DNA of 12,050 bases from Candidatus Thorarchaeota archaeon (GCA_048882325.1 JBHLRS010000066.1:1-12050); one strand, 5' to 3'. Shown: positions 1,041-11,128, counted from the stretch's first letter. The notes: a model not told the origin generated them from the letters alone. Made by a program: numbers and translations.

Positions 1041-3194
1041 CTATCTCCCGAATCTCCTTCTCGCATAGACCGCGGTGAAGATAACAAGTAGTCCACCAAA
1101 CATGCCGGAGGCAATAACCGCTTGTTGAGGAGATAATTCAAACAATCCCTTAGTTTTGGTGGTGTTGCTTATACCAGTGCTAGTCGAGTTTGGTTGCATG
1201 CTCTCCACAAAGCTTGGGAAGTGGTCGATGTCATCATCATCGATGTAATAGTATTCCTCAGCACTCTGCAGGTCGCTCCAGCTGTTTCCCTGATCAATCT
1301 CGTTGTCCCAGCGATTTTCGGAACCTGTACATAGAGCGTTGTCTAGATTGTCAAAGACATTACCAATTATATGATTCCTGCCTGAAAGCCGATTAAGATA
1401 GATGCCAAGTTCGTTCTCAACAATCTCATTATTTCCAATCATTGTTTCATTTGTACGAAGAATGTAAATTCCAATACCATTGTATCTTATTGAATTCGAC
1501 TCAATGGCGGAACCATGAGCACCGATTAACATGATTCCGTCTTCATTATCAAGGACCTGGCAACGATATACCCGTGTTTCAAGTGACTCGTCGAATAATA
1601 TCCCAAAGCCATTACCCTGGATAATACTTCGATAGACCGAACACTGTGTAGACTGGTCAATGTAGATGCCTACCTCGTTGCTTCTTGCTTCAATATAGCT
1701 AAATAAAATATCAGTAGAATAAAGGACGTAGATGCCCCTGACTGCTTGACTGATAGTTACACCAACAATCTCACACTCTTCACTATGAAACAGAGTGATT
1801 CCTGATAGCTCGCCACTAGTGATCACAACCTCGGAGCAGACAGCCAAAATGATCTGTTCAAAATCAGCTCCGTTTAAGACAATTCTGGATTCATTGAAGA
1901 AATACCCTAGCAACCCTCCATTCACAATGTTTCCTGTGATCTCTTGGTCAAACGCACTAGGGTCTGTGACTTGGAACAATATGCCACAATCCACAAAGGT
2001 ATTGTTTGCTATAACTGAATCGATTGGCGGACCGACCTCATAGCCTATTCCAGGATACTCTTCCAAACTCACTGCGTTCAGACAATCGTACACATTGTTC
2101 TCGATGACCTGTGTGTTAATCCCCCCTTGCAGTTGAAATGCAGTGCTTACTTCATGCATCTCATTCCATCGTATCAGAGATTGTCGCGTAACTCTTGTCT
2201 TTATCCCGATAGTGCTACCCCGCGCCCCTGAAATGTCATTCAACTCAATTATGCAACTATTCGATATCTGAACATCGATACCCATGTTCTGCGCTCGAAT
2301 CCTATTGCTCGTAACGAGTGCATTTGTGGTACGTAATTGGACACCTGTCCAGACACTATACAGTGTATTATTGTCAATCTGATTGTCTATTCCATACAGA
2401 ATCTCGATACCTGATTCAAACCCATCAAACACGTTTCCTCTTATAATACCATTCAGGGACTCTCTGAAGATAAGACCAAACTGACCTATAGTTGGCATAC
2501 CTGCAATTTGGAAATAGTTGTCCTCAACGGTGCAATCAAATCCAAAAGCGAGTCTGATCGCATCAGCAGTAACATCACTAAAGAGGTTGTCTCGAATGGT
2601 CAGTCCACTGGTATACTGAACATGGATAGGGAATTGAATGTTTGAGTGTCCCTGACTGTTGCCTGAGAAAACTGAATTGTTCAGATTGTATGCCAGAAAT
2701 CCTAGAACTTGGCTTCTCAGTTGGTTGCCAGTAAAAGAACAGTTTGCTGAGTCGTATATGGTGATAGCACTATGTATCGCTGAAATATTGGAAGTACTGA
2801 TGGTGCCATGAGAAACATTATCAAATGTGACCACACCGTTTCCCCAAACAACGCCGCTTCCTGATAGCCAGCAATCACGAATCACAAAAAACTTGGATGT
2901 ATTCGCAACGGATATTGATGTGACTGAGGTCGTTATGTTCAGGTCCTCAATAATGTATGGACTTCCTTGAGTGCCCAGACCTGGCCACCCCTGCGAGTCA
3001 AAGTCTGAGTCGTTTCTTATAATGATGGGTTGGTGAGGTGAATAACTCACTAGACGAGGTTGGTCTATAATCTCATCTCTTGAACTATTGTATTCAGATT
3101 CCTTACCAATGCTGGAGATTGAAAACATCAAGAATACAACTAGTGCGCAAGTGACTGCTTTCTGCAATCGAGTGGGAGAGAGTGAATAATTCAC
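1041..3194 (-). CDS. Membrane-anchored right-handed parallel beta-helix (NosD/CASH-like) cell-surface protein
   Basis: N-terminal hydrophobic signal (AVTCALVVFLMFS), an HQPIIIRNDSDF..QGWPGLGT..SPYIIEDLNI cap, many GIxL..(S)....I..N.I..N repeats, an NRWD...GNSWSD...D.FP end cap, a Ser/Thr linker and a C-terminal TM helix followed by RRRFGR. The start is uncertain (3242, GTG 3194 or TTG 3167); the AT-rich TATA-like stretch at about 3215-3229 favours the shorter starts. Confidence 0.88.
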   Translation of the reverse strand: MNYSLSPTRLQKAVTCALVVFLMFSISSIGKESEYNSSRDEIIDQPRLVSYSPHQPIIIRNDSDFDSQGWPGLGTQGSPYIIEDLNITTSVTSISVANTSKFFVIRDCWLSGSGVVWGNGVVTFDNVSHGTISTSNISAIHSAITIYDSANCSFTGNQLRSQVLGFLAYNLNNSVFSGNSQGHSNIQFPIHVQYTSGLTIRDNLFSDVTADAIRLAFGFDCTVEDNYFQIAGMPTIGQFGLIFRESLNGIIRGNVFDGFESGIEILYGIDNQIDNNTLYSVWTGVQLRTTNALVTSNRIRAQNMGIDVQISNSCIIELNDISGARGSTIGIKTRVTRQSLIRWNEMHEVSTAFQLQGGINTQVIENNVYDCLNAVSLEEYPGIGYEVGPPIDSVIANNTFVDCGILFQVTDPSAFDQEITGNIVNGGLLGYFFNESRIVLNGADFEQIILAVCSEVVITSGELSGITLFHSEECEIVGVTISQAVRGIYVLYSTDILFSYIEARSNEVGIYIDQSTQCSVYRSIIQGNGFGILFDESLETRVYRCQVLDNEDGIMLIGAHGSAIESNSIRYNGIGIYILRTNETMIGNNEIVENELGIYLNRLSGRNHIIGNVFDNLDNALCTGSENRWDNEIDQGNSWSDLQSAEEYYYIDDDDIDHFPSFVESMQPNSTSTGISNTTKTKGLFELSPQQAVIASGMFGGLLVIFTAVYARRRFGR

Positions 3195-3306
3195 AAACTG
3201 AAAGGCATGGATTGCAATATAATATAATTGCCCCTGACGCAAATGCTCAATGTCACGCGAACCTTAAAACGAAAGATATGCTCAGTCAAAACGAGGCACG
3301 TTAGGA

Positions 3307-4575
3307 TTGCAAGGCCAGAACATCCAAGCCATTCTCATCATGGAGCGTGGAGGAATTCCGCTATTCTTCATGAAGATTGATCCTCGGGCTCAGGACTTAG
3401 ACCCGATGCTTGTGTCTGGGTTCTTCACCGCAATCCAGACTTTTTCCAAGGAGGTTGTGGACCGTCGTAGTTCTAGGTTTCAGGTTGACTATGGTGCTCG
3501 TCTGTTCACAGTTCTCTCAGGCGAGTCGACCGATCTCGTTGCTGTGAGTATGGGCGAATGTGAGGAAGATGTCATCCTAACCCTTACATCTCTTCTCGAG
3601 GAGTTTGAAGGCGTCTGGATCAAGGACCTTACTCGTGAAAAGATGGACACACTCGATATCAACACCGAGTTCTCTGACTTCAGGGAAGGTGTTCTACAAA
3701 ATCTCTCATTCAAGCAAGTTATGGGAAGCTGGATTCCGTTCTTTGTGGGGAGTCCTACTTCTAAGACAACGGAGAGTATAGTTGTCCCATTCATAGATGG
3801 TAGTAGGAATGTGGATGAGATTGTTAAAGAGAGTGGATTGAATCGTGAGGATGTAACTTTTGAAATAACTCGACTCTGGGCTTTAGGAGTTCTTCAGTTT
3901 CGTAGCATTCTTGCCCCTAGTGATGTGGTTGTGTCTACATCGAGACTCGACAGATTTCTCCAATCCTCGTCTTCGCAAAGGGAAGAGCTAGCTCGGACAA
4001 ATCCTGAATTACTTGCACTTCTTCCTCGTATGTCCACACTTTTCGATGGCCGAAGAACTGTGGGTGCAATAACCAGATTTCTCTCAGAGCAGTATTCAGA
4101 GCGTGCACTTATGCAAGCTTTCGATCTCTTGATGGAGAGTAAAGCAATCGATGTGCTTACCCCAGAAAAGAGAAGAATTCTGTTGACCAAAGAGGCCACG
4201 GAGATTGCCATCAAAGTAGCTGAGAATGTCTACTCTGAGGAGAAAGCCTACGAATATCTCGAAACTGCGCTTGCGAAAGTTGCGGTCCCAGAGGTTGTGG
4301 GTGAGGTCCATCTCACTGATGGTAAATGGGAACTGACCTATGGTTCTCGACTTCTCGAAGGACTTGATCCACGAAGATTAATGGAGCTCTATGCTGACTG
4401 GATAAAGCTGCTTGCTCAGTTTTTAGGCGCTATAGACAAGTCGAAGATAAGGACCTATGCTGAAGGTTTGACAGACGCCTACTCATCCTACCTCTTGAAA
4501 AGATACACAGCTGATGATCTAAGGGGATTCGAGGAGATCTCCTACTGGCTCGAGCTAAACTGTGTTGGGAAGTGA
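3307..4575 (+). CDS. Longin-domain protein with tandem winged-helix units (NPRL2/Npr2-like) and a C-terminal helical domain
   Basis: The N-terminal ~130 aa show the Asgard longin pattern IxAILIMxxGGIPLF...DPMLVSGFFTAIQTFSKE followed by three strands and a helix. Two DGxRxVxxI units follow (PFIDGSRNVDEI at aa 161 and FDGRRTVGAI at aa 246). TTG start with GAGG at 3293-3296. Confidence 0.8.
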   Translation: MQGQNIQAILIMERGGIPLFFMKIDPRAQDLDPMLVSGFFTAIQTFSKEVVDRRSSRFQVDYGARLFTVLSGESTDLVAVSMGECEEDVILTLTSLLEEFEGVWIKDLTREKMDTLDINTEFSDFREGVLQNLSFKQVMGSWIPFFVGSPTSKTTESIVVPFIDGSRNVDEIVKESGLNREDVTFEITRLWALGVLQFRSILAPSDVVVSTSRLDRFLQSSSSQREELARTNPELLALLPRMSTLFDGRRTVGAITRFLSEQYSERALMQAFDLLMESKAIDVLTPEKRRILLTKEATEIAIKVAENVYSEEKAYEYLETALAKVAVPEVVGEVHLTDGKWELTYGSRLLEGLDPRRLMELYADWIKLLAQFLGAIDKSKIRTYAEGLTDAYSSYLLKRYTADDLRGFEEISYWLELNCVGK

Positions 4576-4581
4576 AAAAAG

Positions 4582-4911
4582 ATGACAGAAGCTGAAAGAC
4601 CAATTCGAAAGCTCGCAGAAATACTCAGCAGAAGAGGCCAGACAATCTATGGCAGACAAACAATAGTGGAACTCTGCTCTAAGGCAGGTGTGTCCCTCAT
4701 GAATACATTTGATGTAGGAGACCCCGACACAGACGAATCCCTTCAAAACTTCCTAGTTCAGTATTCAAGGCTCAATCCTGCGGCCAAGCTGACCATCCTC
4801 ATCCTCTCTAAGCAATACGGTGTTTCACTCCCTGAAAACCTACTTGGGAAGAAGAAAGGGCTCAAAGACCGTCTTGAATCGCTACAGGACTACCTTCCGT
4901 GGTCTCCATAG
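4582..4911 (+). CDS. Hypothetical mostly alpha-helical protein, 109 aa
   Basis: ATG lies 6 nt after the upstream stop in the same orientation. It has amphipathic helices and no recognised catalytic motif. Confidence 0.8.
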   Translation: MTEAERPIRKLAEILSRRGQTIYGRQTIVELCSKAGVSLMNTFDVGDPDTDESLQNFLVQYSRLNPAAKLTILILSKQYGVSLPENLLGKKKGLKDRLESLQDYLPWSP

Positions 4912-4975
4912 ATTTCTCTCCTTCTTCAGAAAGATTGAACTACTCTCTAGCACTCCGCAGACATGGTCGTGTGGA

Positions 4976-5488
4976 ATGAGTCCATCATATCTTTACAAGA
5001 TTGTGACAGTGGGGTCCTCAGCAGTGGGGAAGACCTCTATCATCATCCGTTACACCACAGGCAAATTCAGGGAGTACTATGCTCCAACACTTGGTGCTGA
5101 CTTTTCAGTGAAGAGCATGGAGATCGGAAGTAATCGAGTCAAGTTACAGATCTGGGACTTGGGGTCTCAGGACTTCCTTGGACATGTAAGAGCTGGTTAT
5201 TATCATGGTGCACGAGGCGTCATCTACATGTTCGATGTAACACGCCCCAATAGTCTTGAAGAGCTATGGGCGTGGAAGAAGGAGGTCGACTCCCAATTGA
5301 AGGGTGTCAAGGTTCTTGTTGTTGCAAACAAGACAGATCTCGATAAGGACAGGAGGGTGTCCCGTGAAGAGGGAGAAAAGTTTGCCAAGAAGTTCCTAGC
5401 AGAGTATGTGGAAACCTCGGTGAAACTGAACAAGGGCGTTGATGACACCTTCACAATCATGGCAAAGCGCTTGATGGTAGATGCATAG
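4976..5488 (+). CDS. Rab-like small GTPase (Ras superfamily), 170 aa
   Basis: G1 GSSAVGKTS, G2 YAPTLG, G3 WDLGSQ, G4 NKTD, G5 ETSVK. RabF-like motifs LGADF, KLQIW, YYHGA and YMFDVT are present. The start is reassigned to ATG 4976 (MSPSYLYKIVTVG). There is no C-terminal prenylation Cys. Confidence 0.95.
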   Translation: MSPSYLYKIVTVGSSAVGKTSIIIRYTTGKFREYYAPTLGADFSVKSMEIGSNRVKLQIWDLGSQDFLGHVRAGYYHGARGVIYMFDVTRPNSLEELWAWKKEVDSQLKGVKVLVVANKTDLDKDRRVSREEGEKFAKKFLAEYVETSVKLNKGVDDTFTIMAKRLMVDA

Positions 5489-5567
5489 TTTAGCTAAAGC
5501 CATCATTTTCTAATGTTGGCTGTAAGCACACATGATTACTGATAGACTCAATTTTCATTTGAGGTGG

Positions 5568-7517
5568 TTAACCGAGGATTTCTGAGAACAAATCCCTGCT
5601 CAGCTCCTGTTCAACCAGACTGACTTGCTGCTTATTCCTTCGATAATCTCGAAATGCAATGATTGCAACCACAATAATGATCTCAATCGATGCCGCAGAA
5701 ATCCCCAAAGTCGCAGCACCTAACCAATTAGGATCAGTGTTTGTGGATACATCTGGGGGTATTGTTGGAATCGCGGTGGATGGAGATGTTTCCGAAACTT
5801 CGTCAGCAGGGAGAAAGTGATAGTGTGAGTTCTTTGTCAGAGTATATGTATTTCCTGAATCATACTCTAAGAAGATATACGGGCCGCATGTGACATGAGG
5901 GTGCGTGGGATTGAAACCCGGATTCCAGTCTTCCCAATCATCAAAGCCAACAGCTCCATACTCACTGAACACATGTTTCGGCAGTATCTTGATGAAGGCG
6001 AAGTTGTTTAAGTGCCAATACGACTCAGATCCGAATTCGATTACCACTCGATAAGGTTGTTGAGCATATGCTGCGTAGAGGTCTCCAAAGGGGAGCCCTA
6101 GAGCGTGATAATGTGCACCACTCTCTAAAATGTAGGAAAAGGTGTTTGCTACATCTTCTGCTGTAAGAGGTGTTCCATCAGTCCAAGTTGCGTTTTGGAT
6201 GATATCGATGATGTACCTTTGATGATTCTCAGGTACTGCAGGGTTGTCACTATGGGTCTGAACAATACAACTTGTTGCCAGATCCATGACAGGATGTTGG
6301 GCTGGATCAAGTCTGAACAGGGAAGAATATAGACTGTCCATGACATCTTGCCAAACTCTTCCTGATCCTGTGAATACATTCAGGGTCTCAATCTCCTGAG
6401 GTATCGCGATAGGAACTATTCCTCCCGGATTGCCATCGATTCTCTTTATGTGCCTAAGGGTCCATTGGCCACTGATGTATTTTCTCAGGTCCCTGATATG
6501 GTCTTTGAATCTGTCATTCCTGTATGCCTGCATGTAGGTTGTCTCGTACACAACTAGTCTGGGTACGTTCTCATGCAGAATCATCTGCATGTGCGCAGCC
6601 GCCTCATAGACTTCATCATAGGTCACTCCATGAAGGAGCTGGTCAATCCAACCGTCGTATGTTTCATTCACGAAGTTCGTTGGGTTGCAATATGGCACAG
6701 AGGCGTGATCTCCCCTAAACTCGTATGCGAGCCACTCGACATCATTTCCAGGGTACTCACTGACATAGAAGACCATGTCAAAGTCCCCATGTTGGTCCAG
6801 TCTTGAGATGTATTCGTTGGGTGGAGTAGGACGAGTTGTCGCGTTGACATCTAAAGCCCTGAGGGCGTCGACACCAATCTGAGCTGTACCCCCGGCAATC
6901 TCAGGTGATGATGAGGCATATTCAATGACTACGTTGAATGGTGACTCATCAGGAGCCAGCCTGTAGCCTGAACCAGGGTCGATGGTGAAGCCTGCTCTAT
7001 CCAGGATCTGATTGCCTCTATCTACTTGCGCTGTATAATAGTGGTAAGGCATATCGTCCTCGATGCACCAGCCGCTAGTATAAGGCACAAGTGAGTCATG
7101 TTCCTGTGAAAAACCGTCTTTGATCTCTGACGTGACTGCGGTCTTGTCGAAAGCATACGCAAAGGCTCTTCTGAATGCACTGATATTTAATGGATACTTT
7201 CGACAGTTGATTGTAAGATGGCCGTATCCATTTTGGAGTGCAGAGAAGATATCTATTTCATAATCCCAATCTAGTGTGTTTAGATGAACAGGATCAAAGA
7301 ACGAATGGTCAATCTCAATATCCCCCTCTTGTATTGCTAGCATCCTTTGGTCTGCTAAAGGTATGACGGTATACTCGATATTATCAATATGTGGGCCTGA
7401 GTTTGGACTATGTGGAAGGGTATATCCATAATGAGTCGAAGCTGAAACCACACTGAGCCCTGACACACACACAAGAAGAAGAACGACTCCTACTGCGCTA
7501 TGGAATCTCCAATCCAC
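5568..7517 (-). CDS. ABC-type substrate-binding protein, family 5 (DppA/OppA-like), circularly permuted, with C-terminal TM anchor
   Basis: Family-5 motifs FRRAFAYAFDK, ATWTDGTPLTAEDV and VTCGPY...LTKNSHY. Signal peptide, Ser/Thr/Pro linker, TM helix and a ~27-aa tail. GTG start with GAGGAG upstream. Confidence 0.92.
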   Translation of the reverse strand: MDWRFHSAVGVVLLLVCVSGLSVVSASTHYGYTLPHSPNSGPHIDNIEYTVIPLADQRMLAIQEGDIEIDHSFFDPVHLNTLDWDYEIDIFSALQNGYGHLTINCRKYPLNISAFRRAFAYAFDKTAVTSEIKDGFSQEHDSLVPYTSGWCIEDDMPYHYYTAQVDRGNQILDRAGFTIDPGSGYRLAPDESPFNVVIEYASSSPEIAGGTAQIGVDALRALDVNATTRPTPPNEYISRLDQHGDFDMVFYVSEYPGNDVEWLAYEFRGDHASVPYCNPTNFVNETYDGWIDQLLHGVTYDEVYEAAAHMQMILHENVPRLVVYETTYMQAYRNDRFKDHIRDLRKYISGQWTLRHIKRIDGNPGGIVPIAIPQEIETLNVFTGSGRVWQDVMDSLYSSLFRLDPAQHPVMDLATSCIVQTHSDNPAVPENHQRYIIDIIQNATWTDGTPLTAEDVANTFSYILESGAHYHALGLPFGDLYAAYAQQPYRVVIEFGSESYWHLNNFAFIKILPKHVFSEYGAVGFDDWEDWNPGFNPTHPHVTCGPYIFLEYDSGNTYTLTKNSHYHFLPADEVSETSPSTAIPTIPPDVSTNTDPNWLGAATLGISAASIEIIIVVAIIAFRDYRRNKQQVSLVEQELSRDLFSEILG

Positions 7518-7588
7518 ACCTGTCTCCTCAAGTGAATTAGGGAGTTAACAGTGAAGTATCTTTGTTTCTGTGTATCTGCGGACACATT
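7517..7588 (-). promoter_or_regulatory. Upstream region of SBP paralog 1: RBS, conserved AACAAAGATACTT core and TGTGT-N8-ACACA palindrome (7569-7586)
   Basis: These blocks are conserved at near-identical spacing in 9807-9877 while the intervening bases differ. Confidence 0.65.
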
Positions 7589-7599
7589 TTGAGCGACTT

Positions 7600-9807
7600 C
7601 TATGCTTGATCTTGAGTGTCTGAACCAAAGATCTCAGCAAACCAGTCAACTGGATTCTCTTCAGGTATGCTTTCTTTCGTTAGACGCCACTTCTTGTAGT
7701 CCCGCCTGGAAACACAAGCCACCCAGAGGAATACCTGAATTGATACAACAGAAATCGCGATTGCAACTGCTCGCATAGGGGACACTGGTTGTCCTGGAAG
7801 AGGACCTAGGTCAGATAGTACATGAACCTGAACAGAACTTGACTCAGAGTATCCTCCGTCATATTCAACATCCAACGTAAACACATAGTTACCCACATCG
7901 AGACCGTCGATAGGACACACAAGAGGTCCTCCCTCCCACCTTCCAATCGCCACTACGTCAGAATTCCTGTACAAAGTGTATGATGCATTCTGGTTCAGGA
8001 TTGTACTCCACTCAATGGTGTTTCCTTCCGAACCAACGAAGTACGTAATTTCCTCCAGCGATCTGATGAAGGTTTCTGAGTAGTGAGGGTTGTAGTAATA
8101 TCTCGGGTTTTGGGTCAACTCATAGAAAGGCAAGTCTATGTATCGGAAAGTTTTGTATCCCTGTCCAGCACTGGTGAGTATAAACGGTCCACTTGTCACA
8201 AGGAGATCGGATGGATTGCGCACTGGATTCCATATGTCCCAGTTTGCATACCCAATACCATCCTGATCGTTGAAAATGTGCTTGGGGATTATCTTGACAA
8301 ATGCAAAACTGTTGAAGTGCCAGTAAAACTCGGAATTGAACTCCAACCTCACAGTGTATGGTCCCAAGGCGATGGCTGATTGTAGGTCTTCTAGTTGACT
8401 AGACATGGGATTTCCATATGTGCCACTTTCCAGAATGTAGGTGAAGGTAAAAGCCACGTCTTCTGCTGTCAGAGGTGTTCCATCACTCCAGGTTGCATTA
8501 TGGATGATGTTGATAGTGAATCGAGTGTGACCCTCAGGAACATCTGAATTGTCGCTATGTGTTTCTGTGGTTAAGGTAGTGGCCAGATCACCAATTGGAT
8601 GCTGACTGGGGTCCCTCACATATAATGATGAATAAAGGTTGTCGAGAATAAAATAGGTGTGTGCATCTGCATCTTCGAGAAAGATGTTGAAGGTGTCTGT
8701 ATATTCAGGCAATGCGATTGTTGGAATCCTGTTCCGAGGTTCTATTTCATGTATGTTCCTCATTGTCCAAGGACCAGCGATGTATCTAGCTAGGTCTGGG
8801 ACATGACCTGTGAATATGTCGTTTCTATACATCTGCATGTTCGTGTTTTCGTATGCCACTAACCATGGAACATTGTAGTGTATAATCTTTTGAATCTCAG
8901 AAACTGCATCGTGAACCTGTTGAGCGTCTGTACTATGGAGAAATTGATCCCTATACAGGTCGAGTGTCTGATTTACAAATTGTGCAATGTTATGATAGGG
9001 TAAGTCTGCATTTGGAGACCAAAACTCATCTATCAGCCACAAAGGCTCTGTATCATAGAAATCAATCTCTTGAAATAGAATATCAAATTCATGATATCCA
9101 TCACATCTGACAATGTATTCATTGAACTCTACGCCCCTTATCGCTGCATCAACAGAAAGTGCGTGCAATGCATCAATCCCGATTTGGCAGGTTGTTTCTG
9201 CAATTATTGAATGAATAGGGTACTCGATAACAATGCTAAATGGCGAACCATCAGGAGCCTCCCTCCATCCTGTTGTTCCGTTGATCGCAAAACCTGCTGC
9301 ATTGAGAATCTCGTTACCAACTTCTGGTTGGGCAGTGTAGTAGTGGAAATCGAGCTCATCCTCTATGCACCAATCGCTGATATAGGGTATGATTGAATCG
9401 TGTTCCTGGGAGAAACCATCCATAGCATAAGCAGTGACTGCGGTCTTGTCGAAGGCATAGGCAAACGCTCTTCGTAAAGCACTGATATTGAGTGGGTATT
9501 GTGAACAGTTTATTGTGAAGTAGCCATACCCGTTTCTGAGCGCGCTAAATATGTCGATATCTAAATCATCTAATGTAGGTAAATGGGCCGGGTCAACGAA
9601 CCCTGTTTGCATCTCGAACTCACCTGCTTGGAGGCCAAGGATAGTCAAATCTTTGTTCTCCTGTTCAAAGAAGACAAGTCTATCAACGTATGGTCCAATC
9701 TGAAGATCTTCTGGTACGATAACTGCGTCTATTGCAGAAACCTGAGATGAAACAAGTATTCCCAAAAGTAGCAGTATTCCCACTACTCTGAAGACTCTCC
9801 AGTCCAC
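7600..9807 (-). CDS. ABC-type substrate-binding protein, family 5, circularly permuted, with Ig-like domain and C-terminal TM anchor; tandem paralog of 5568-7517
   Basis: Motifs LRRAFAYAFDK, ATWSDGTPLTAEDV and VTSGPF...LTQNPRY. It has an extra beta-rich domain (GNTIEW...YTLYRN...GRW...DGLDVGNYVFTLDV) before the TM helix, and the same MDWR start and GAGGAG RBS as the paralog. Confidence 0.92.
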   Translation of the reverse strand: MDWRVFRVVGILLLLGILVSSQVSAIDAVIVPEDLQIGPYVDRLVFFEQENKDLTILGLQAGEFEMQTGFVDPAHLPTLDDLDIDIFSALRNGYGYFTINCSQYPLNISALRRAFAYAFDKTAVTAYAMDGFSQEHDSIIPYISDWCIEDELDFHYYTAQPEVGNEILNAAGFAINGTTGWREAPDGSPFSIVIEYPIHSIIAETTCQIGIDALHALSVDAAIRGVEFNEYIVRCDGYHEFDILFQEIDFYDTEPLWLIDEFWSPNADLPYHNIAQFVNQTLDLYRDQFLHSTDAQQVHDAVSEIQKIIHYNVPWLVAYENTNMQMYRNDIFTGHVPDLARYIAGPWTMRNIHEIEPRNRIPTIALPEYTDTFNIFLEDADAHTYFILDNLYSSLYVRDPSQHPIGDLATTLTTETHSDNSDVPEGHTRFTINIIHNATWSDGTPLTAEDVAFTFTYILESGTYGNPMSSQLEDLQSAIALGPYTVRLEFNSEFYWHFNSFAFVKIIPKHIFNDQDGIGYANWDIWNPVRNPSDLLVTSGPFILTSAGQGYKTFRYIDLPFYELTQNPRYYYNPHYSETFIRSLEEITYFVGSEGNTIEWSTILNQNASYTLYRNSDVVAIGRWEGGPLVCPIDGLDVGNYVFTLDVEYDGGYSESSSVQVHVLSDLGPLPGQPVSPMRAVAIAISVVSIQVFLWVACVSRRDYKKWRLTKESIPEENPVDWFAEIFGSDTQDQA

Positions 9808-9877
9808 AACTATCTCCTCAAGATAATATCCGGAGGATGGTAAAGTATCTTTGTTCCTGTGTAACCACTAACACATT
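9807..9877 (-). promoter_or_regulatory. Upstream region of SBP paralog 2: RBS, conserved AACAAAGATACTT core and TGTGT-N8-ACACA palindrome (9858-9875)
   Basis: AAGTATCTTTGTT at 9843-9855 is identical to 7554-7566. TCTCCTCAAG and the palindrome arms are identical in both copies. Confidence 0.65.
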
Positions 9878-9886
9878 CCAAAGGCA

Positions 9887-10762
9887 TTATCCGCTATAAT
9901 CTACAATATTGGGCTCATCCTCTATGAACTCAGCAGATAGGCCTAATCTATCAAAGAATTTCAGCACTGCAATGCATGCAAACTTCTCAGTAGAATAGTG
10001 AGTAGCGGAAATCACATTGATCTTGTGCTCCTCGCATAGCTCATGGAACCTCAATGAAGGTTCATAATTTGCAACCTTCATTGTGACCCCAGTGATGAAA
10101 TTCCTAACATCCGTACCAGAAATCTCCTCCGCAATCTCTGGATAGTTGCCACCACCCGCTACTAGGGCAACTCTCTGGTTTGAAATCTCAGGTGAGCCAT
10201 ATGCCCATGTTCTCACAGGGTGACCTACCGAATCTTCGAATTGCGCGACTAGATTGGAGACAGTTTTGCATTCAGTCTTTCCAATGATGCCTGCCTTCAC
10301 GCCAAAATAATCAAAGAATTCATCCTCGATGTCTATCTCGATAGCTTTTGCAAGTGATACAGTTGTACTGTAGGGTCCATTCCTGTCCAGTGGTACATGG
10401 ATTGAGTAATATGAGATTGCTCGCTTCTTGAGTTGGTCCAAATATCGGTGCGGGATGTTCCTGAAAGGGTGTTCTCCAGGACGTGGATCCCATATCATCG
10501 GATGGTGGGTGAAGAGAAGGACATTCCGCTCATCTGACGATATTATTCTATCAAGCACACGTTCACTTGGAAACACTGCAGTGTAGACATTGTGAATCTC
10601 GTCTGTGTTATCTAATGCAAGCCCCATCCTTGTAGTCTTGAAATTCTCTGTGATATTATCTCCCAGATCTAAGTTACCCCACTCATCATCAGTGAGTTTA
10701 TCCAGTTCAAACTCCTCATCCAAACTCGCAAATAGCTGCTCCGCTTTCATTTTCCTTACCAT
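9887..10762 (-). CDS. NIF3/YbgI-family dinuclear metal-centre protein
   Basis: Family metal-ligand motifs LFTHHP, YSIHVPLD and ATHYSTE, plus VALVAGGG; 291 aa. Confidence 0.9.
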   Translation of the reverse strand: MVRKMKAEQLFASLDEEFELDKLTDDEWGNLDLGDNITENFKTTRMGLALDNTDEIHNVYTAVFPSERVLDRIISSDERNVLLFTHHPMIWDPRPGEHPFRNIPHRYLDQLKKRAISYYSIHVPLDRNGPYSTTVSLAKAIEIDIEDEFFDYFGVKAGIIGKTECKTVSNLVAQFEDSVGHPVRTWAYGSPEISNQRVALVAGGGNYPEIAEEISGTDVRNFITGVTMKVANYEPSLRFHELCEEHKINVISATHYSTEKFACIAVLKFFDRLGLSAEFIEDEPNIVDYSG

Positions 10763-10819: not shown

Positions 10820-11128
10820 CTATTCACGAGCTTCCATCATTTCGGGATTTATAGACCAACAGCGTTTTTCCAAAAACTCTGATGAAACGATCAATCCTCT
10901 CTCTTCCATGTTCTCAAGATGTTCCCTGAACTCTTTACAGGTGAGGGCGACACCTTTCGTCAAAAGGAGGAACTTTTCATAAAGCGTCGCTTCGAACTCG
11001 ATTATTGCGTGACCGAAGGACAGTATGATTTTATCCTCAATAAGAGGAGGTACCGTGCTGAGTATAATCTTTTCACCGGTTGGGGTTTCTACAGTGTGCG
11101 CGTTCAATGGTAACACCTGAGAATACAT
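10820..11128 (-). CDS. Small hypothetical protein, probable winged-helix fold
   Basis: The C-terminal EFREHLENMEERGLIVSSEFLEKRCWSI fits a recognition helix, GLI and beta-wing pattern. The start may instead be TTG 11107, which has AGGTG 6 nt upstream. Confidence 0.6.
   Translation of the reverse strand: MYSQVLPLNAHTVETPTGEKIILSTVPPLIEDKIILSFGHAIIEFEATLYEKFLLLTKGVALTCKEFREHLENMEERGLIVSSEFLEKRCWSINPEMMEARE

Follow-up and report, generated by a model that had tools for sequence, protein, structure and literature searches.

We analysed a 12,050-bp stretch of DNA from Candidatus Thorarchaeota archaeon (GCA_048882325.1 JBHLRS010000066.1:1-12050; hereafter the window), which is a complete contig of a 3.6-Mb draft genome (G000; completeness 93%). 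Two adjacent genes on its minus strand encode membrane-anchored substrate-binding proteins, SBP-A and SBP-B, whose C-termini continue past the membrane helix into a cytoplasmic tail carrying a short acidic-aromatic motif – the box. This tail has a defined anatomy and a single origin, is under purifying selection at the protein level and is restricted to one lineage. Our leading though tentative explanation, to which we give a little less than an even chance, is that the tail is a protein-contact module, private to this lineage, on a transport binding protein that still serves peptide uptake. Helix face and box would hold the protein in a membrane complex, the likeliest partners being a shared Opp/Dpp translocator or the protein itself.

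The two genes form a tandem pair of translated open reading frames (ORFs), with SBP-B upstream and SBP-A 82 bp downstream. SBP-A consists of a signal peptide, a circularly permuted family-5 binding domain, a Ser/Thr/Pro stalk, a membrane helix and a cytoplasmic tail, and is 49% identical to SBP-B across 548 aligned columns. Both ends contain a helix with a Ser-x-x-Ser-x-Glu/Gln face, RDY[RK][RK], an 11-12-residue spacer and the box [RV]D[LW]F.EI[LF]G. The parts are as follows (aa, amino acids):

5568..7517, minus strand: SBP-A gene, 649 aa (ORF; PF00496, E = 7.2e-42; AlphaFold2 (AF2) model with a mean predicted local distance difference test score (pLDDT) of 89)
7437..7517, minus strand: SBP-A N-terminal signal peptide VDWRFHSAVGVVLLLVCVSGLSVVSAS, extent inferred (translation; hydrophobic model helix 3-19; putative cleavage)
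5709..5807, minus strand: SBP-A stalk, rich in Ser/Thr/Pro and weakly conserved (pairwise identity 0.17; pLDDT <50 at 581-598)
5652..5708, minus strand: SBP-A membrane helix LGISAASIEIIIVVAIIAF, with S607, S610 and E612 (5682-5684) (translation, tail alignment)
5631..5651, minus strand: SBP-A juxtamembrane basic box RDYRRNK (translation, tail alignment)
5598..5630, minus strand: SBP-A spacer QQVSLVEQELS, 11 residues, variable, mostly acidic (translation; identity 0.21)
5571..5597, minus strand: SBP-A terminal box RDLFSEILG, within which the earlier note's DLFSEILG spans 5571-5594 (translation; identity 0.68; predicted helix 643-648)
7600..9807, minus strand: SBP-B gene, 735 aa, with the SBP-A layout plus an extra ~100-aa domain before the membrane helix (ORF; PF00496, E = 5.6e-36)
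7765..8094, minus strand: SBP-B extra beta-rich, possibly Ig-like domain and short stalk, not in SBP-A (tail-clade alignment; putative fold)
7708..7764, minus strand: SBP-B membrane helix AIAISVVSIQVFLWVACVS, with Q691 (7735-7737) (translation, tail alignment)
7687..7707, minus strand: SBP-B juxtamembrane box RRDYKKW (translation, tail alignment)
7651..7686, minus strand: SBP-B spacer RLTKESIPEENP, containing two prolines (translation; coil at 32-39 of a 53-aa model)
7624..7650, minus strand: SBP-B terminal box VDWFAEIFG, within which the earlier note's DWFAEIFG spans 7624-7647 (translation, tail alignment; helix 40-45 of the 53-aa model, pLDDT ~60)
7603..7623, minus strand: SBP-B post-box residues SDTQDQA (seven), unconserved (translation, tail alignment)

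An earlier note on this DNA had reported both C-termini, with identical motif spacing and no flanking permease or ATPase gene. Re-translating the minus strand part by part returned both strings at the positions it gave, the two tails align without a gap, and the absence of a permease or ATPase neighbour is true within the 12-kb contig. The extra ~100-residue domain of SBP-B lies between binding domain and stalk and is also found in tail-less ~710-aa paralogs; a Pfam scan named no family for it. Scanning 5300-10000 for bacterial-type promoters and terminators, with models ill-suited to archaea, gave hits at shuffle level only.

Both proteins are family-5 binding proteins. Pfam PF00496 (SBP_bac_5) matches SBP-A and SBP-B at 144.3 and 124.9 bits (cut-off 32.4), and a profile of their family matched 82 solved chains at E<=0.001 – the best being AppA (1xoc, 1.6e-25), with OppA, DppA and NikA also matched. 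NCBIfam scans of the two proteins returned binding-protein models only and no CTERM sorting-domain model; a Strep_his_triad Pfam match of 16.6 bits, below its cut-off of 27, was dismissed. Searched against the PDB, the SBP-A model (predicted template modelling score 0.80) gave 172 matches at E<=0.001, led by DppA (5f1q), NikA and AppA. Only 287-343 columns could be aligned and template modelling scores by query were 0.35-0.41, in line with what aligning a permutant in sequential order should give.

The family profile aligns with AppA in two pieces whose order is exchanged (query 360-563 on AppA 19-207; query 39-305 on AppA 212-478; the Pfam coordinates are swapped likewise), the N-terminal ~340 residues corresponding to the C-terminal part of canonical proteins and vice versa. 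This makes the whole family a circularly permuted version of the family-5 fold, not a separate fold. SBP-A and SBP-B thus depart from the canonical segment order, and the SBP-A model has the two-lobed cluster C fold. Among the papers listed in a literature search, none named circular permutation. Collinear matches (E<=1e-60) occur in 72 of the 85 other genomes of the window's taxonomic family, in the single genome (1/1) of the sister family and in 0 of 313 other Asgard genomes.

The tail recurs beyond the pair. We took as homologues the best 120 of the 604 proteins passing E<=1e-10 against SBP-A. Thirteen of these continue for 24-38 residues past the last hydrophobic stretch, and the box is present in all 13, intact or decayed; 102 stop within 0-9 residues of the helix, and the remaining five are truncated or had no helix called on a crude hydrophobicity scale. 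With SBP-B, P0130, five fragments and a metagenomic locus included, the distinct tails number 21 (15 full-length, 6 partial). A search with a 6-tail alignment gave 28 pattern matches and two confirmed loci, one a true relative (L031) and the other a bacterial false hit (L032).

Tails from 14 different proteins align without gaps from the helix through the box; in the metagenomic relative L031 the spacer is four residues longer. Across 14 full-length tail-bearers, pairwise identity averages 0.61 in the ectodomain, 0.17 in the stalk, 0.42 in the membrane helix, 0.50 in the juxtamembrane segment, 0.21 in the spacer and 0.68 in the box – so that the box, compared with the rest of the tail as the earlier note had proposed, stands well above its weakly conserved flanks, stalk and spacer (0.17-0.21). 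Within the helix alignment S7 is invariant, S4 is present in at least 90%, and the polar residue that the note had remarked on at mid-helix is retained at position 9 in all 14 (E in 4, Q in 9, T in 1). The box consensus is [R]-D-[W/Y/L]-F-x-E-[I/V]-[F/L]-G, its D and E invariant or near-invariant, and the juxtamembrane net charge is +2 in 11 of the 14 tails. Many members have 1-14 residues beyond the box, which is thus not always terminal.

At the conserved box residues, eight genes use varied synonymous codons (R as AGG, AGA or CGG; D as GAT or GAC; F as TTC or TTT; E as GAA or GAG; I as ATC, ATA or ATT; G as GGT or GGA), so selection acts at the protein level. The note had allowed that the motif might be shared only through recent duplication. 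It is present, degenerate in some, in 15/15 full-length and 6/6 fragmentary members, and to judge from the sequences the tail is not a relic of recent duplication, because 21 tails exist, their bearers form a single ectodomain clade, the box is conserved against its flanks and its codons vary synonymously. The tail is thus a selected, functional element.

Trees built on ectodomain columns only, and unrooted, place the tail-bearers together. FastTree (119 rows) puts them on one side of a branch with Shimodaira-Hasegawa (SH)-like support of 97. IQ-TREE under LG+G4, run on 44 rows (the 14 tail-bearers, their 12 nearest relatives and 18 drawn at random from the remaining 93), splits them off with ultrafast bootstrap and SH-like approximate likelihood-ratio values of 100/97, and in 100% of 200 bootstrap trees. 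Within the tail clade, an A-type group (~650 aa, with Glu in the helix) is derived from B-like forms (~710-745 aa, with Gln and the extra domain); P0005 groups with the A type and retains the B layout. In the alignment, sister lineages end directly past the basic stop-transfer cluster and the tail lineage continues for ~20-30 residues. As the tail begins where the sister lineages stop, we infer that it is a C-terminal extension, probably gained once rather than lost elsewhere, a reading that we prefer because the other 102 homologues have short ends.

To map the distribution, we ran a 48-position helix-plus-tail profile across 400 Asgard genomes, of which 28, including the window's own, belong to the window's genus. 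Strong matches (73-87 bits) fall in five genomes, all of that genus (G000, G341, G345, G357 and G359), and these carry the tail; the other matches score 18-22 bits, mostly on the hydrophobic part. The same profile found eight proteins at E<=0.001 among 1.84 billion representative proteins. Five are SBP-B, family fragments or a chimera, and the other three (P0125, P0127, P0128) were set aside as chance matches – unrelated repeat proteins that match via repeated D-W-[LF]-x-E/G-like stretches. In a 5.8-billion collection, all 15 matches have PF00496 or are fragments of such proteins. The own-genome motif search that the note had suggested, made over 24,229 six-frame stop-to-stop frames of at least 50 aa, found D[WYL]F.E[IV][FL]G and RDY[RK][RK][WN] in SBP-A and SBP-B alone. 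The tail is private to one small lineage of one family.

One short protein from the search of the representatives, P0124 (116 aa), joins the C-terminal part of a NIF3-like protein in frame to the second half of the helix and a full A-type tail; it is either a natural deletion of the binding domain or an assembly chimera.

Models give the tail a plausible shape. In the full-length SBP-A model, a helix at 599-639 comprises the membrane helix and 17 cytoplasmic residues (pLDDT 79-89 from 611), breaks at Ser-Arg-Asp 640-642 and is followed by a short helix at 643-648, the last block having a pLDDT of 73. The 53-residue end of SBP-B, folded alone with 15 tails, forms a helix at 2-31, a coil across the proline spacer and a low-confidence short helix at WFAEIF. 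Searching the ESM Atlas with the tail gave a best feature score of 0.75, below lead level, and the structural matches were single long helices.

The note had taken the pair for receptors rather than simple transport subunits, an argument that leans on the lack of transporter genes beside them. The window's genome encodes eight paralogs of the permuted family, six of them with short basic ends. Seven of the eight have no permease neighbour, and the eighth (contig C4, G000:C4:37106-39136; L070 7107-8966) belongs to a full Opp/Dpp-type operon, in which three OppB/C-type permease genes lie directly upstream of it and two OppD/F-type ATPase genes lie opposite. Orphan status is thus the rule in this genome and no mark of the tailed pair, which weakens the argument.

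The operon-encoded class has an anchor of its own, rich in Gly and Ala and with the same 25 residues in 33 of 41 proteins, at a mean ectodomain identity of 75%. We fetched 30 loci to compare anchor classes and dropped five that our script could not classify. The operon-encoded class adjoins an OppB-like permease at 11 of 13 genus loci, the other classes at 0 of 11. By its sequence, this anchor resembles an element for specific helix-helix contact or for sorting in its own right. Anchors in the family thus seem to carry specific information, and it is mainly for this reason that we read the tail as a contact module.

The proposed explanation can be set out as follows. SBP-A and SBP-B are two orphan paralogs in a large Thorarchaeial family of membrane-anchored, permuted OppA/DppA-type binding proteins, and would still act in peptide uptake. 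As modelled, the tail comprises a helix extending from the membrane, an acid-rich spacer of near-fixed length and a short terminal helix with the box. Strongly polar residues within single membrane helices drive helix association. The Ser-x-x-Ser-x-Glu/Gln face, on the outer half of the membrane helix, may accordingly pack sideways onto another membrane helix while the box docks onto a cytoplasmic surface, the two jointly fixing the binding protein within a defined membrane complex. The conserved acidic D and E of the box suit protein contact better than lipid insertion. As partner, we would guess at a shared Opp/Dpp translocator encoded elsewhere, then at self-association, then at something else and last at the GTPase module described below. 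Receptors of the T-cell receptor/CD3 and DAP12 type are modular single-pass proteins assembled via polar membrane-helix residues. By analogy, the tailed proteins can be likened to them in having a ligand-binding single-pass subunit, a conserved strongly polar helix residue and a short cytoplasmic tail; unlike them, they share no homology with these receptors and have no known signalling partner with a complementary helix.

Several observations weigh against this explanation. No partner was found for the tail, in an analysis that included no test of binding. Strong profile matches are confined to 5 of the 28 genus genomes, with 0 among the 372 other Asgard genomes, a rarity that makes the tail dispensable for the family's main job. 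The anchor of the operon-encoded paralog is quite unlike the tailed one, so that a contact of the tail type with the translocator stays conjecture. The box is not exceptional in its conservation, which is typical of a folded core: 186 of 528 nine-column windows of the ectodomain match or exceed it. Some members have a decayed box, with DWLTAVFG in P0004, a final W in P0057 and P0076 and a final D in P0130 and P0122. Lastly, the A type occurs alone in G357 and G359 and the B type alone in G345, in genomes that are 74-93% complete. We set aside an obligatory A/B heterodimer, as the two types do not always co-occur among the strong matches, though the genomes are incomplete.

The genes around the pair bear on one of the alternatives. 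They are:

3307-5488, plus strand: three-gene operon encoding a 422-aa protein, a 109-aa protein and a Ras/Rab-like GTPase, convergent with SBP-A
1041-3242, minus strand: NosD/beta-helix protein with a C-terminal membrane helix (Pfam)
9887-10762: NIF3-like family gene adjoining the binding proteins
10820-11128, minus strand: 102-aa ORF without a Pfam or NCBIfam match, kept beside the NIF3-like gene in most related loci at 64-74% identity

The GTPase of the operon matches PF00071 (E 4e-44) and is, we presume, not of the ArvA family reported in PMC10927574. The family of the 422-aa protein gives weak matches to NPR2 and HTH_NPRL3 in 9 and 2 of its 24 members (best E 0.005 and 0.001), all below the Pfam cut-offs. 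A 528-aa paralog carries the homologue of the 109-aa protein in its last 85 residues (445-527), which makes the 422-aa/109-aa pair a split form. A Thorarchaeota NPRL2-like family has already been published, as extracts of that paper indicate (10.1101/2020.10.19.343400). The operon trio is intact in all nine loci that we fetched from six other genera.

A tail-bearing gene lies 0-3 genes from the GTPase operon at five of six loci (the window, G357, G359, G345 and L031, not G341). Orthologues of the 422-aa protein (>=58% identity) are found in 17 of the 28 genus genomes and the tail in five. G341 (91% complete) carries the two tailed genes, but for the 422-aa protein it has only a paralog of 40% identity. 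A paralog of the binding-protein family is present at 9 of 12 operon loci within the genus and at 0 of 9 in the six other genera. In G361, G354 and G348 the same site is held by tail-less or differently tailed paralogs, which in the tree sit on long branches close to the tail clade, though not within it. The link between tail and operon is thus synteny inside one genus, for which common descent accounts.

One of these paralogs, of 678 aa, sits immediately upstream of the NPRL2-like gene in G348 (L068 3300-5336). Its helix and collar ISSISGFVIVVFSYRSY are similar, but its 28-residue tail differs and ends in IPWEEVSEGIGNHREED; this tail may have diverged from the one described here or have been added independently as a second extension.

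In this genus, the variable region surrounding the GTPase operon forms an island of membrane-anchored secreted proteins, each with a C-terminal membrane helix. Related loci encode a beta-lactamase-fold serine hydrolase of ~417-440 aa and a ThuA/BPL_N-like protein of ~330 aa (L027 14350-15603; L029 10807-11790). This content, the beta-lactamase-fold hydrolase included, fits extracellular peptide or polymer breakdown and peptide scavenging.

Among explanations other than a contact module, a partner-free structural or biogenesis element is possible but clearly less probable. Here a longer, capped helix and basic collar would set the topology, depth or tilt of the anchor, or rest on the inner membrane surface. 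The collar is charged as the positive-inside rule would have it (+2 in 11 of 14 tails), the model helix extends 18 residues past the membrane, the W/F/I/F residues of the box could lie at the membrane interface, and the failure to find a partner fits as well. An amphipathic-helix reading of the box was nevertheless rejected, its hydrophobic moment exceeding shuffles in just 1 of 14 tails, and the acidic spacer and (near-)invariant D and E would bind lipid poorly. The 102 of 120 best homologues with 0-9 post-helix residues indicate that anchoring creates no general need for a tail, and the box is kept although prolines break the helix in SBP-B and P0057. We consider it unlikely that the tail is a turnover or shedding signal, in which the polar, small-residue half of the helix and the box would mark the protein for intramembrane cleavage or a cytoplasmic protease, releasing the ectodomain or tuning its level. 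Small or polar helix-destabilising residues in the outer helix half recall rhomboid substrates, and C-terminal hydrophobic boxes can serve as degrons. Extracts of PMC3387779 further describe some archaeal C-terminally anchored enzymes as partly released by unexplained means. Yet the 93%-complete genome of the window gave no match to rhomboid PF01694 (control positive in 14 of 14 genomes) and none to exosortase/archaeosortase PF09721 (control positive in only 1 of 14), and in many members the box is followed by 1-14 residues rather than standing at the extreme end.

The earlier note's own suggestion – that these are single-pass nutrient receptors or sorted cargo whose tail docks on a trafficking or signalling protein, such as the products of the 3307-5488 operon – strikes us as more doubtful again. 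Eukaryotic cargo receptors carry short acidic or aromatic adaptor-binding cytoplasmic motifs that recur on many cargo families. The box resembles these as a short acidic-plus-aromatic element ending the short tail of a type I membrane protein, but it belongs to one lineage only, in an organism with no known adaptor. A sorting signal would be expected on several unrelated proteins; the box is on no other protein of its own genome or of the 1.84 billion representatives, and its confinement to a single lineage argues against a general sorting signal. The proximity of tail gene and GTPase at five of six loci favours docking, as do the weak, sub-cut-off NPR2/HTH_NPRL3 matches of the 422-aa neighbour and, in the extracts cited above, the published NPRL2-like proteins. 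So do parts of two further accounts, in which the archaeal binding-protein homologues BasA and CosA act in chemotaxis (PMC3387779) and a small GTPase of Haloferax drives vesicle formation, binding proteins dominating the vesicle proteome (PMC10927574). The case for docking on the neighbouring longin or GTPase genes is weakened by the uneven distribution of operon and tail (17 against 5 of 28 genomes), by G341 with both tailed genes and no orthologue, by the tail-less paralogs at the same site in G361, G354 and G348, and by the absence of any family binding protein near the operon at the nine loci of six other genera; moreover, SBP-A and the operon are convergent, not co-transcribed, and the GTPase is presumably outside the ArvA family. 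In its most specific form the idea makes these proteins primitive nutrient receptors, in which a single polar-faced membrane helix would link the peptide-binding ectodomain to the box. The tail would be the receptor's inner end, and the box would bind the NPRL2-like longin protein encoded next door, that protein's detachable tail protein or the Rab-like GTPase, for peptide reporting or vesicle sorting. We regard this form as very improbable.

The contact-module explanation can also be set against described systems. To judge from extracts of PMC3387779, the closest described proteins are the crenarchaeal oligopeptide-class binding proteins of Sulfolobus solfataricus and Aeropyrum pernix, in which an N-terminal signal peptide and a glycosylated Ser/Thr stalk are combined with a membrane segment at the C-terminus. 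The tailed proteins share with them, as portrayed there, a signal peptide, a family-5 domain, a weakly conserved Ser/Thr/Pro stalk, a single C-terminal helix and an ABC (ATP-binding cassette)-transporter family context. Unlike them, the tailed lineage is permuted and has a conserved Ser-x-x-Ser-x-Glu/Gln face and ~20-30 conserved residues past the basic cluster where the usual anchor ends. What is new relative to the crenarchaeal proteins is the conserved helix face and the conserved cytoplasmic extension. We found no published account of a binding protein with a conserved cytoplasmic tail in the archaeal, Asgard or Thorarchaeota literature, which is limited evidence of absence.

In Pseudomonas aeruginosa, according to parts of PMC4206461, the several binding proteins DppA1-A5 share one translocator, DppBCDF. 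As there, the genome analysed here has several family-5 paralogs, most of them away from the single permease/ATPase operon; unlike here, those proteins are soluble, periplasmic and without anchor or tail, and translocator sharing by the tailed proteins is assumed by analogy. The tripartite C-terminal sorting signals of the PGF-CTERM/archaeosortase type (Haft et al. 2012, cited in PMC3387779) likewise form a conserved C-terminal module with a hydrophobic helix and basic residues. Theirs, unlike the tail, has its signature before the helix, ends past a few basic residues, occurs on many unrelated proteins and needs a sortase. Sharing by unrelated proteins is not seen for the tail, whose motif occurs in 2 of the 24,229 six-frame ORFs and in no other family among the 1.84 billion proteins.

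The binding proteins of ABC importers are usually viewed as passive, tethered ligand catchers. A selected tail and polar helix face, together with the near-invariant anchor of the permease-adjacent class, suggest that the anchor shares in assembling or regulating the uptake machinery. At present the tail is a rare, genus-level variation – real but, short of a known partner, only modestly interesting – and a receptor role for SBP-A and SBP-B is so far without support. Were the nutrient-receptor reading true, an Asgard archaeon would report extracellular peptides to a GTPase switch akin to eukaryotic amino-acid sensing, or use the switch to sort a binding protein into vesicles; wider interest would follow only if the partner belonged to the eukaryote-like GTPase or trafficking set. 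A partner, if found, would show how a surface binding protein connects to the interior of an Asgard cell.

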